A DNA stretch of 46,078 nt from a virus (Duplodnaviria > Heunggongvirae > Uroviricota > Caudoviricetes). The notes under the pieces were generated by a model. The model saw only the letters and a program-made list of their open reading frames with translations. It was not told where the DNA came from and did no database searches. Shown here piece by piece: positions 14,413-18,034 of the stretch. The stretch lies in IMG/VR virus record IMGVR_UViG_2675903417_000003; one strand, given 5' to 3'. The number at the start of each line of letters is the position of its first letter. Within the stretch, counting starts at the first letter, position 1. Both the position numbers and the translations under genes were made by a program.

Positions 14413-14625
14413 TCATGAAAGGTAAACATTGGCAGCTGAAGGGCCACGCAGACCATTTATCCGGCAAAATTCCACGCGTAATCCGGTGGTAATTTCTTCT
14501 GCATCGCGGAGATTGAGCGCTGAAACATGAAGCTGGACATCGATACGACCATCGGATGGGGTGATAAGACCCTTGCCGCTTTTGCCGTCAAAGGTTTTGA
14601 CAATTCCTGTCATTTTACGGGACAA
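14413..14625 (-). CDS. cspF: Cold-shock protein paralog (CspF/CspH-like), probable TTG start
   Basis: 70 aa [31 protein letters not shown]...; AAGGA sits 6 nt upstream of the TTG at 14625; the first ATG is codon 5. Confidence 0.8.
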
Positions 14626-14925
14626 AAAAATTCCTTAATACTGATAACTTGGCGCACTATACACACGTTCCTGAAGAAAGCTATAGTTTTTTGATGGGGT
14701 TGAAGATGGCTGGATGTCTAAAATAAACATTGCTTCATATGTTCAACTATGCGTTAATGATTGCGTCGGTTTGAAGAACAGACGATATACGAAGTAGTTT
14801 ACTAAAGCAGTTCTCATTTCAGGTGTTATTCACTTATTCCTTCTTTGAGTCTCTCCAATTAAGTACGAAGTCGTTTCTGTTATGCAAACCATTTATGCCG
14901 AAAGGCTCAAGTTAAGGAATGTAGA

Positions 14926-15141
14926 ATGTCAAATAAAATGACTGGTTTAGTAAAATGGTTTAACGCTGATAAAGGTTTCGGCTTTATTTCTCCTGTTGAT
15001 GGTAGTAAAGATGTGTTTGTGCATTTTTCTGCGATTCAGAATGATAATTATCGAACCTTATTTGAAGGTCAAAAGGTTACCTTCTCTATAGAGAGTGGTG
15101 CTAAAGGTCCTGCAGCAGCAAATGTCATCATTACTGATTAA
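14926..15141 (+). CDS. cspB: Cold-shock protein CspB-like
   Basis: 71 aa [71 protein letters not shown]; long 5' UTR and AAGGAA Shine-Dalgarno. Confidence 0.9.
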
Positions 15142-15423
15142 AATTCATCGCTCGTCTGTATACGATAACGAAGAAGGCTGATGCCTGAGTAGAGATACGG
15201 ACAGAGTAGTGAATATTGGATCTCTTTAATAAAAAGTAAGGAGGTCCAATACATGAAACAATGGCTAGCATATTTGGCAAAATCTTAATCAGGAAAAGTA
15301 TGCTAACCATTGTGGTGAAGTGCAGGTTTGCTGCATGAATAGTTTTACAGCAGAAGCTAACTGCTGGCATGGCAAAACAAAGTGCGTAAGTGGATGACTC
15401 CCACAAAAAGCACCACAATCTCA

Positions 15424-15446
15424 AACCCGCTCAGGCGGGTTTTTTA
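15424..15446. terminator. Intrinsic terminator between cspB and the convergent zinc-ribbon gene
   Basis: AACCCGC-TCAG-GCGGGTT hairpin plus T-run. Confidence 0.6.
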
Positions 15447-15504
15447 TTATCTGCTTTAAATATATTATTAAAATATAAAAAATACTTGTTACTAATAAAA
15501 TCAA

Positions 15505-15675
15505 TCAGGCTACAGCTTTAAGATTTGTCTGGAATACTTTGTTGCAATGAGGGCAGATCAAAAGGGCACCTTTTTGTACTCTTGAAAAACTGTGTTCTGA
15601 CTCTTGGGTGCAGTTTGGGCAGGAACATTTAACGAGATAATTACGGCGTGATTTTGAGTTTTTACGTTCTGACAT
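15505..15675 (-). CDS. Small zinc-ribbon protein (CxxC-x17-CxxC), YnfU-like
   Basis: 56 aa MSERKNSKSRRNYLVKCSCPNCTQESEHSFSRVQKGALLICPHCNKVFQTNLKAVA; AGGAAAAG Shine-Dalgarno. Confidence 0.55.
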   Translation of the reverse strand: MSERKNSKSRRNYLVKCSCPNCTQESEHSFSRVQKGALLICPHCNKVFQTNLKAVA

Positions 15676-15894
15676 AGGCTTTTCCTGTATAAATGGCCGT
15701 ATACAGTACACTAAATATGAAAACATTTCTCGTATTATTATTTTATATATGACTTTCTTTCAAAATAATTACCCACATTTTTAATGTGTATGTTTTTTTA
15801 GCGCCGTTGAGAACAACGTGTGCTGTCAAAACTACCCCGTAGACTCCGATCTTTTCAAACATATTGCACCATCCGTGTACATCGGGGTGAGGAT

Positions 15895-16110
15895 ATGAAA
15901 TCAATGGATAAGTTAACAACAGGTGTTGCCTATGGCACATCGGCGGGTAATGCTGGTTTCTGGGCATTGCAGTTACTCGATAAAGTAACTCCGTCACAGT
16001 GGGCTGCAATCGGTGTGCTGGGTAGCCTGGTTTTTGGCCTGCTGACGTATCTGACAAATCTTTATTTCAAGATTAAAGAAGACAGGCGTAAGGCTGCGAG
16101 AGGAGAGTAA
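15895..16110 (+). CDS. essQ: Class II pinholin (phage 21 S-like) with dual-start motif
   Basis: 71 aa [71 protein letters not shown]; Met1 and Met4 both present; GGGGTGAGG Shine-Dalgarno. Confidence 0.85.
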
Positions 16111-16114
16111 TCCA

Positions 16115-16426
16115 ATGACTCAAGACTATGAACTGGTTGTGAAAGGAGTCCGTAATTTTGAGAATAAAGTTACGGTAACTGTAGCCTTACAGGACAAAGA
16201 ACGCTTTGACGGTGAAATTTTTGACCTGGATGTCGCCATGGACCGTGTTGAAGGAGCTGCGCTGGAGTTTTATGAGGCAGCAGCCAGAAGGAGCGTCCGG
16301 CAAGTCTTCCTGGAAGTAGCAGAAAAATTGTCAGAAAAAGTTGAGTCTTATCTGCAGCATCAATACTCCTTTAAGATTGAAAATCCTGCCAATAAGCACG
16401 AGCGTCCTCATCATAAATATCTATGA
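16115..16426 (+). CDS. ydfR: YdfR-like protein between holin and endolysin
   Basis: 103-aa ORF; stop overlaps the endolysin start (ATGA). Confidence 0.65.
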   Translation: MTQDYELVVKGVRNFENKVTVTVALQDKERFDGEIFDLDVAMDRVEGAALEFYEAAARRSVRQVFLEVAEKLSEKVESYLQHQYSFKIENPANKHERPHHKYL

Positions 16427-16956
16427 ACACAAAAATCAGATACGGCCTGTCGGCTGCCGTTCTGGCGCTGATTGGTGCTGGCGCATCTGCTCCTCAGATA
16501 CTTGACCAGTTTCTGGACGAAAAAGAAGGTAACCACACAATGGCATACCGCGATGGTTCTGGCATATGGACCATCTGTCGGGGTGCCACAGTGGTGGATG
16601 GAAAAACCGTTTTTCCCAATATGAAACTGTCGAAGGAAAAATGCGACCAGGTCAACGCCATTGAGCGTGATAAGGCGCTGGCATGGGTGGAGCGCAATAT
16701 TAAAGTACCACTGACCGAACCACAAAAAGCGGGTATCGCGTCATTTTGTCCCTATAACATTGGCCCCGGTAAGTGTTTCCCGTCGACGTTTTATAAGCGG
16801 CTGAATGCTGGTGATCGTAAAGGTGCATGCGAAGCGATTCGCTGGTGGATTAAGGATGGCGGACGCGATTGCCGCATTCGTTCAAATAACTGTTACGGTC
16901 AGGTTATTCGTCGTGACCAGGAGAGCGCATTAACCTGCTGGGGGATAGAACAGTGA
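16423..16956 (+). CDS. rrrQ: SAR endolysin (lysozyme-like, phage 21 R-type)
   Basis: 177 aa; Gly/Ala-rich N-terminal signal-anchor-release segment [21 protein letters not shown]; E...D...T catalytic pattern [22 protein letters not shown]. Confidence 0.85.
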
Positions 16957-17459
16957 ATCAGATATTCATGGTGATTTTTCTCGTGTTGTCAGGATTTATC
17001 GTCGGAAATGTCTGGAGCGACCGAGGATGGCAAAAAAAATGGGCGGAACGTGATGTTGCCGCATTATCACAAGAGGTAAATGCTCAATTTGCTGCTCGAA
17101 TAATTGAACAGGGGCGAACTATAGCCCGTGATGAGGCTGTTAAAGATGCGCAACAGAAATCTGCTGAAATTTCTGCCAGGGCTGCTTATCTGTCTGATAG
17201 TGTTAACCAGTTGCGTGCCGAAGCAAAAAAATATGCCATACGCCTTGACGCAGCGAAGCATACCGCAGATCTTGCCGCTGCCGTCAGAGGCAAAACAACC
17301 AAAACCGCCGAAGGAATGCTCACCAACATGCTCGGAGATATTGCAGCAGAAGCTCAGCTTTATGCTGAAATTGCTGAAATTGCTGACGAACGCTACATCG
17401 CAGGAGTGACTTGTCAACAGATCTATGAATCTTTAAGAGATAAAAAGCATCAAATGTAG
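16953..17459 (+). CDS. rzpQ: Rz i-spanin
   Basis: 168 aa; GTG start overlapping the endolysin stop; N-terminal TM then coiled-coil-like sequence. Confidence 0.8.
17146..17409 (+). CDS. rzoQ: Rz1 o-spanin lipoprotein, embedded in Rz in the +1 frame
   Basis: Lipobox LTSC followed by a proline-rich mature part; GAGG upstream of ATG 17146. Confidence 0.7.
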
Positions 17460-17821
17460 GGTAATATTAAATCGGAACATTTACATCGCGGAATGTAAAA
17501 TTTAAATAAAAAGGACTCTTCCATGAGCCAAAATTCCTGAAATCTTAAGGGTAAGATAAAAGGTCTTAATCAGAATGACACGTTTTATTAATAAATAAAG
17601 CTATTCTTTCATTGCTGTGTTTTTCTTTACAAAAGTAATCCTTGCTATGGGTGGTTAATCATGCGTTAATGGTGTTCTGGTTTGTTACAAATTTATCTGA
17701 AGCAGTCATTGTTATAATTTTATTATTTGTACCTCTTGAGATTTCCTTGTTGGTTTTTCTCTCTGATATTTTTTTTCGGACCATTCTGCCCAAGGGCTAA
17801 TTTCTTCAAAAGGTAATAATT

Positions 17822-18034
17822 ATGTCTAACAAAATGACTGGTTTAGTGAAATGGTTTAACCCTGAAAAAGGTTTTGGTTTCATCACGCCGAAAGATGGCA
17901 GCAAAGATGTGTTTGTCCATTTCTCAGCAATTCAGAGCAACGATTTCAAAACATTAACTGAGAATCAGGAAGTTGAATTTGGTATTGAGAACGGACCTAA
18001 AGGTCCTGCCGCTGTTCATGTAGTGGCGCTTTGA
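17822..18034 (+). CDS. cspI: Cold-shock protein CspI-like
   Basis: 70 aa [70 protein letters not shown]; long AT-rich 5' UTR. Confidence 0.9.

Follow-up and report, generated by a model that had tools for sequence, protein, structure and literature searches.

Among the lambdoid morons, stx of the Stx phages sits in the Q-S slot, and bor of lambda in the slot after Rz. In Escherichia coli K-12, the cold-shock genes cspB, cspF and cspI have already been placed in the prophage Qin and treated as horizontally acquired cargo (PMC6379469). Induction of K-12 cspB and cspI on temperature downshift has been reported (references cited in PMC6719143), and a quadruple cspA/B/G/E deletion is cold-sensitive (PMC6719143). 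Furthermore, overproduction of SulA raised the expression of cspB, and SulA-dependent release of protein was lower when cspB was deleted; overexpression of cspB caused no protein release, and the authors did not pursue the gene (PMC8123628). Here, we analyzed a stretch of 46,078 nucleotides from a tailed virus (Caudoviricetes; IMG/VR record IMGVR_UViG_2675903417_000003), referred to as the window, in which an earlier note made from the sequence had pointed to three cold-shock protein genes around the lysis genes at positions 14413-18034. This region very probably comprises the late-control and lysis genes of a lambdoid E. coli prophage of the Qin type, in which cspB and cspI are autonomous host-benefit morons in two variable slots.

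An open reading frame (ORF) listing and direct reading of positions 14000-18500 identified the region as cspF, cspB, ynfU, essQ-ydfR-rrrQ-rzpQ/rzoQ and cspI, at the coordinates collected in Table 1. The gene order is identical in the K-12 MG1655 record, where it is labelled cryptic prophage Qin and where b1552-b1559 comprise cspI, rzpQ/rzoQ, rrrQ, ydfR, essQ, ynfU, cspB, cspF, ynfS and ydfT. In RefSeq, the genes of the module are named ydfT, cspF, cspB, ynfU, essD/essQ, ydfR, rrrQ, rzpQ, cspI, ynfQ, ynfR, ynfN and gnsB. The earlier note had named the three genes cspF-like (minus strand, TTG start), cspB-like and cspI-like, and these names were exact, each protein being 100% identical to its K-12 namesake CspF, CspB or CspI. 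The stretch from cspF to cspB is identical to K-12 at 551 of 551 nt, the TTG start of cspF included, and per-segment nucleotide identity from Q to gnsB amounts to 99.7-100%, with the exception of rzpQ (98%). As expected for a late region of the Qin type, Q is followed by holin, endolysin and Rz/Rz1 genes in synteny with K-12 Qin (Pfam, K-12 annotation, and 98-100% identity per segment). The note's further statement that the csp genes bracket the lysis cassette together with a zinc-ribbon mini-protein holds for the layout; the zinc-ribbon proteins, however, are two, YnfU and YnfQ. Given nine cold-shock domain (CSD) genes in total in K-12 (PMC6719143), three within 3.6 kb are far above chance in a genome of the size of K-12, 4.6 Mb. 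The three-csp layout as such, with the csp genes located in Qin and cspB and cspI cold-inducible, is already known K-12 biology.

To describe the distribution of the module, positions 13200-18600 were compared by megablast with 5426 complete E. coli genomes, 1587 of which (~29%) carry the whole module at a coverage of at least 80%. The same arrangement was found in five deposited phage genomes, i.e., PhiR42_1, Tritos, 2H10 (genus Glaedevirus), HannyBb and PhiR63_1, and PhiR42_1 matches the window module at 99.7% over the full 5.4 kb. The three-csp arrangement is thus not merely a relic of the decayed K-12 prophage, as it is kept in deposited phage genomes too. Across the five phages, the coding regions and leaders of cspB and cspI are 95-100% identical; Q and the endolysin go down to 88-91% identity in the three more distant ones. 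A CspB-like sequence occurs in only 88 of 50,697 phage records, nine of which are Escherichia phage records.

The late region of the window begins with Q and pR'/tR' and continues with a first block of cargo (ynfS, cspF on the minus strand, cspB on the plus strand, the 3' RNA described below, a terminator, and ynfU on the minus strand). Holin, ydfR, endolysin and Rz/Rz1 genes follow, and a second block (cspI, ynfQ, ynfR, ynfN and gnsB) precedes the terminase. Within the first slot, ynfS and cspF are directed toward Q, cspB is trailed by a 280-nt 3' region ending in the terminator, and ynfU lies antisense. The tR'-like hairpin sits ~105 nt downstream of Q. Tritos has kept it, with a T-to-C change by which the G-U pair of the stem becomes G-C; in phage SfV, the homologous position was annotated by the depositors as a rho-independent terminator. 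For SfV, SKA5, Salmonella 118970_sal3 and an Stx2k phage, all of which share this Q, homology to the window ends sharply at ~14120-14128, just past the tR'-like hairpin. We infer that positions 14022-14126 form a pR'-tR' module and that a variable cargo slot starts right after it.

Comparison with sister phages placed the csp genes among the exchangeable parts of this region. Phage mEp460 shares Q and the holin-ydfR-endolysin genes with the window but carries other cargo and no csp genes; SfV shares Q, has an S-R-Rz cassette and likewise lacks csp genes. Between Q and the holin gene, mEp460 and SfV carry a DNA methylase gene or other ORFs, and mEp460 lacks cspI after Rz. Because these slots hold other cargo or none in mEp460 and SfV, the csp genes are dispensable passengers outside the lysis machinery. 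Both their presence or absence among homologous phages and their deviant base composition (41% G+C at 14413-18034 vs. 50.5% in the window) agree with what defines a moron. The two blocks would accordingly be morons in the two classical variable slots, one between Q/tR' and the holin gene and one after Rz.

CspF, CspB and CspI each consist of a single CSD of ~70 amino acids that matches PF00313 end to end, and CspB and CspI keep the aromatic motifs RNP1 (KGFGFI) and RNP2 (VFVHF). The longest exact match between cspB and cspI comprises only 17 nt. Both genes, leaders and coding regions included, match the Rfam model of the cspA thermoregulator, RF01766 (gathering score 78 bits), with 158.8 bits at 14765-15157 for cspB and 112.8 bits at 17676-18061 for cspI. 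Beyond these two matches, Rfam at E<=1 over 13900-18900 returned just chance-level similarities to a Trp leader (21.7 bits) and P9 (19.3 bits). The starts of the RF01766 matches give 5' untranslated regions (UTRs) of 161 nt for cspB and 146 nt for cspI, close to the published lengths of 160 and 145 nt (PMC6719143). With 37% and 31% G+C, respectively, against the 50.5% of the window, they are the long AT-rich 5' UTRs that the earlier note had described.

The note had also proposed to compare these 5' UTRs with the cspA cold box, and the comparison bore out the likeness. Alignment of the cspB and cspI leaders with K-12 cspA and cspG revealed that UP element, -35, TGn-10 and upstream box are all kept. 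The cold box of cspB, TGAAGAACAGA, is well kept relative to TGACGTACAGA in cspA, and its upstream box reads GCCGAAAGGC. In cspI, the upstream box reads GCCCAAGGGC and the cold box is shortened (GGTTTG--TTACAAA), which together with the lower score sets this leader somewhat apart from the cspA thermosensor. In the same alignment, the coding regions of cspB and cspI, too, are nearly identical to those of K-12 cspA and cspG over their first ~50 nt, and a downstream box has been described within this part of the coding region (PMC6719143).

The third gene, cspF, differs from the cspA thermosensor units in lacking these features. Its TTG is a credible start codon, because an AAGGA Shine-Dalgarno sequence lies 7 nt upstream and because the TTG aligns with the start of the MS(N/R)KMTG N-terminus common to all paralogues. 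The RNP1 and RNP2 motifs of CspF, however, read KGKGLI and VQLHV instead of KGFGFI and VFVHF, W11 is replaced by T, and the aromatic pattern is not kept. In line with this, CspF has been described as having only three aromatic residues, and CspF and CspH as lacking the aromatics needed for RNA binding; the Csps listed as cold-induced are only CspA, B, E, G and I, CspF not being among them (PMC6719143). No cspA-type leader was found at cspF, as RF01766 gave no match there, neither at the gathering score nor at E<=1. Tritos carries cspF only as a pseudogene, which has lost its 3' end, along with ynfS, through a 258-nt deletion and bears an additional 1-nt deletion (Tritos 2290-2970 compared with window 13985-14935). 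The ~160-nt cspB 5' UTR beside this decayed gene is 100% identical to that of the window. On these grounds, CspF is not credible as an RNA chaperone, and it would be a degenerate paralogue that is not cold-inducible. Of the RNA-chaperone cluster suggested by the earlier note, two of the three members, CspB and CspI, could be retained.

The following picture of the region emerges. cspB and cspI would be autonomous units, each with a cspA-like sigma-70 promoter and a thermosensing 5' UTR, and cspB also with its own terminator. Because of these promoters, leaders and the cspB terminator, both proteins could be made in the cold without switching on the lysis genes: in the lysogen, cold shock would lead to production of CspB and CspI, while tR' and the cspB terminator would keep the lysis genes off. 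CspB and CspI would then join the redundant pool of CspA-family RNA chaperones, to the benefit of the host. Host benefit had been one of the earlier note's suggestions, and for cspB and cspI it is the accepted reading, given that they are cold-inducible members of the CspA family (PMC6719143) and that the cspA thermosensor is present in their leaders. In the lytic cycle, polymerase modified by Q would pass through tR' and the terminator of cspB, and since cspB and cspI run in the direction of the late operon, they would simply be co-transcribed. The insulation of the csp units from the lysis genes is thus a predicted property of the region.

Some points weigh against this picture. The cspB terminator is clear; the promoters, by contrast, were recognized by alignment to the cspA promoter, and a simple consensus promoter scan missed them, their -10 hexamers falling outside its criteria. 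How the promoters are used, how efficient termination is and whether cold induces the genes in this strain are, moreover, carried over from its identity to K-12. Finally, CspA-family proteins have been described as nucleic-acid chaperones that can influence expression via antitermination (PMC11228462), so that some cold-dependent read-through into the holin gene may occur.

This last point leads to the proposal of the earlier note that lysis itself might be under cold-conditioned control. Prophage Csps would then act on the late transcript, e.g., by melting or antitermination at tR' or the cspB terminator or by remodelling of the holin mRNA, and lysis timing would become temperature-dependent. 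It fits this proposal that the csp genes flank the cassette, that the arrangement is conserved in the five phage genomes, and that cspB is co-oriented with the holin gene ~750 nt upstream of it. However, the architecture argues against it, because cspF points away from the cassette, the strong terminator after cspB precedes the holin gene, and cspI lies downstream of the cassette. Phage mEp460, which shares Q and the holin-ydfR-endolysin genes, does without csp genes altogether, as does SfV, which shares Q, and the same csp cassette is found beside dnaE in phage-plasmids with no lysis genes nearby. A literature search found no paper tying the Qin csp genes to Qin lysis. Nothing in the layout points to Csps regulating lysis, and we regard such control as highly improbable; this part of the earlier note was not upheld.

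A benefit for the phage rather than for the lysogen would arise if cspB and cspI were over-produced from the Q-dependent late transcript and kept late mRNAs translatable in the cold, e.g., outside the gut. Both functional csp genes run in the same direction as the late operon, and both have stayed intact in each of the five phages (95.8-100% nt identity); cspF, in contrast, can decay. Co-orientation is, however, a general rule for morons that needs no special explanation, and the rarity of CspB-like sequences among phage records, stated above, also speaks against this explanation, which we consider unlikely. The decay of cspF, with its degenerate motifs and its pseudogene in Tritos, and the defective state of Qin in K-12 would be compatible with neutral hitch-hiking, in which the csp genes would be duplicates left behind that serve no present function in the prophage. 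Yet the coding regions and leaders of cspB and cspI are 95-100% conserved where Q and endolysin differ by ~9-12%, the thermosensor structure is retained, and cold induction has been published (PMC6719143), which makes neutrality extremely unlikely. Autonomous host-benefit morons remain our preferred explanation for cspB and cspI.

In addition to these known elements, the 3' region of cspB holds a conserved structured RNA. The 314 nt after cspB (15142-15455) fold far better than shuffled sequences (z = -6.6). RNAalifold, applied to four and then to 13 distinct variants, predicted a closing stem of 8-9 bp around three conserved hairpins, with a fourth hairpin in most variants. Seven to eight of the 23-29 pairs show compensatory changes, among variants that stand for just four or five lineages. 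A 7-nt loop, AAGCUAA, and the single-stranded AAAGUGCGUAAG are invariant. In the four-variant alignment, 97.4% of cells are paired and not one of 500 column shuffles attained the covariation score; sliding the structures by 1-3 columns left at most two compensatory pairs vs. eight. Because of the G-U pairs, the RNA was assigned to the strand of cspB. A covariance model found a single copy in the window, at 15304-15425 with 143 bits, immediately ahead of the cspB terminator, and no copy near cspI, cspG or cspA.

The element has no Rfam match (E<=1, 13900-18900) and is unannotated in RefSeq, and a literature search found no known small RNA (sRNA) at the cspB 3' site. An exact 20-mer of the RNA core, searched against one genome per species, occurred only in Escherichia and Shigella, apart from three chance matches; the wider diversity of the RNA came from plasmid and viral collections. 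GCU stands in an anticodon-like loop, which had raised the idea of a tRNA-like molecule. We rejected this candidate, as ARAGORN reported no tRNA in the window, the AAGCUAA loop is without U33, and there is no T-loop consensus. Upstream of the structured RNA, an 11-codon ORF (15254-15289) was noticed, whose strong Shine-Dalgarno sequence AAGGAGG is sequestered in a 14-bp hairpin. Tentatively, and with less than even confidence, we propose that the cspB 3' RNA represents a new family of RNAs associated with mobile cold-shock cassettes, acting either as a cis element of the 3' UTR or as a 3'-UTR-derived sRNA. If this is true, the 3' UTR element could set csp mRNA stability in cold acclimation.

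The link to mobile cassettes comes from the occurrence of the distal cspB 3' region in unrelated backbones, where it recurs 150-300 nt downstream of cspB/G-type csp genes. These backbones comprise SSU5-like phage-plasmids of E. coli, in which the element lies next to dnaE, phage Cyrano, IncFIB phage-plasmids of Klebsiella pneumoniae, a K. variicola plasmid, and phage PHB10, where a cspF/csp pair is again arranged divergently. The one unit examined from an E. coli phage-plasmid contains the cspA-type promoter, cold box, coding sequence, 3' element and terminator, and the terminator is conserved in plasmid-borne csp units. By its sequence contexts, the csp unit behaves as a mobile cassette that the phages have in common with phage-plasmids.

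Table 1. Positions of the genes and control elements of the late region in the window.
Feature	Position	Strand	Evidence
quuQ/ydfT, late-gene antiterminator Q	13239-13991	+	PF03589 E 3.6e-54; nt sequence 100% identical to ydfT of K-12
Candidate late promoter pR', TTTGCA-18-TAAAAT	14022-14051	+	Promoter-like site, consensus scan
tR'-like intrinsic terminator	~14096-14126	+	Hairpin AACCTGCT-GATG-AGCGGGTT followed by T-rich run, read from sequence
ynfS-like small ORF downstream of cspF	14269-14358	-	Annotated in RefSeq neighbours and K-12
cspF, divergent CSD protein	14413-14625	-	PF00313 E 5.6e-22; TTG start as in K-12 b1558
cspB promoter (cspA-like UP element, -35, TGn-10) and 161-nt 5' UTR	14727-14925	+	Alignment with cspA, cspG and cspI leaders
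cspB, cold-inducible CspA-family protein	14926-15141	+	PF00313 E 9.8e-32; RF01766 158.8 bits
Structured RNA 3' of cspB, conserved and unannotated, closing stem and 3-4 hairpins	15304-15425	+	RNAalifold, covariance model
Intrinsic terminator ending the cspB unit	15423-15449	+	8-bp stem (15423-15442), 5 G-C pairs, T run
ynfU, 56-aa zinc-knuckle protein, two CPxC knuckles	15505-15675	-	PF23499 E 3.5e-31
essQ, holin	15895-16110	+	PF04971 E 4.4e-34
ydfR (DUF1327)	16115-16426	+	PF07041 E 1.1e-53
rrrQ, endolysin (lysozyme)	16423-16956	+	PF00959 E 1e-23
rzpQ, Rz-like i-spanin (DUF2514)	16953-17459	+	PF10721 E 2e-36; alignments to K-12, Tritos, 2H10
rzoQ, lipoprotein embedded in rzpQ	17146-17409		
cspI promoter and 146-nt 5' UTR	17640-17821	+	Alignment; RF01766 match from 17676
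cspI, cold-inducible CspA-family protein	17822-18034	+	PF00313 E 1.6e-31; RF01766 112.8 bits
ynfQ, YmcF-like cold-shock small protein, CPCC...CIFC, second zinc-ribbon candidate	18045-18233	+	PF23641 E 6.9e-32; RefSeq
ynfR, ynfN, gnsB, remaining cargo downstream of the lysis genes	18236-18881	+	RefSeq annotation of identical DNA

Regarding the remaining genes of the region, YnfU is known from earlier work as a small zinc-knuckle protein encoded by Qin (bioRxiv 10.1101/511675). The gene of the second candidate, ynfQ, starts with ATT 10 nt past cspI, and AZT treatment induced it along with cspI and ynfN (PMC11228462). A hairpin resembling a terminator (18242-18255) overlaps with ynfR (18236-18301). 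Within the lysis cassette, a 9-nt in-frame tandem duplication (gctgaaatt twice, 17364-17381) adds AEI to RzpQ and three residues to RzoQ; it is not present in K-12, Tritos or 2H10, and together with one substitution it distinguishes rzpQ/rzoQ of the window from the Qin genes. Elsewhere in the window, Rfam matched above the gathering score a group II intron domain close to the left end (37-123, plus strand), DicF (2249-2300, minus strand), sok of the hokD locus (7748-7919, plus strand), and IS009 inside the tail-fibre assembly region (42994-43192, plus strand).

A known arrangement comparable to that of the csp genes is the core chromosomal cspG locus of K-12 (1050963-1052240). Its order, cspH(-)-cspG-ymcF-ymcE-gnsA, is collinear with cspF(-)-cspB...cspI-ynfQ-ynfR/N-gnsB minus the lysis block; in contrast to the prophage region, it has neither lysis genes nor flanking phage genes, and identity amounts to only ~76%. 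The cspG leader and the first ~70 nt of cspG are cspB-like, and the remainder and the downstream genes resemble cspI and ynfQ. A maximum chi-square analysis placed the switch in cspG at ~+70, significant only with the flanks included (coding sequence alone, p = 0.17), so that a cspB(5')/cspI(3') mosaic in cspG is no more than a lead. In 5392 of 5426 genomes, cspG-ymcF gave one uninterrupted alignment with an artificial cspB::cspI-ynfQ chimera, at 75.7%. The same query detected no recent cspB::cspI hybrid followed by ynfQ among the 5426 genomes, only the ancient cspG-ymcF locus being aligned. This collinearity suggests either that a lysis cassette was lost long ago by deletion between the two csp direct repeats or that the phage captured the host locus.

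Taken as a whole, the three-csp finding re-discovers textbook K-12 biology and opens no new question. The added value is modest and lies in a layout kept in phage genomes, a csp unit that is mobile with phage-plasmids, and an unannotated RNA supported by covariation. These points bear on the spread of stress-response genes by temperate phages and leave the view of lysis control unchanged. Only the structured RNA 3' of cspB and the collinearity with the cspG locus are worth following up.

Compared with Qin of K-12, the prophage in the window is far more complete, as terminase, portal, head and tail genes are present; the rest of the window also contains dicB/dicC/DicF, relBE, hokD/sok and nohA. 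Compared with the lambdoid morons stx and bor, the csp cargo resides in the same two slots, has predicted promoters of its own and, for cspB, a terminator, is lower in G+C, and is missing from sister phages with the same flanking genes. The difference lies in the nature of the cargo, which consists here of stress-response genes (csp, ynfQ and gnsB) and not of a toxin or serum-resistance gene.

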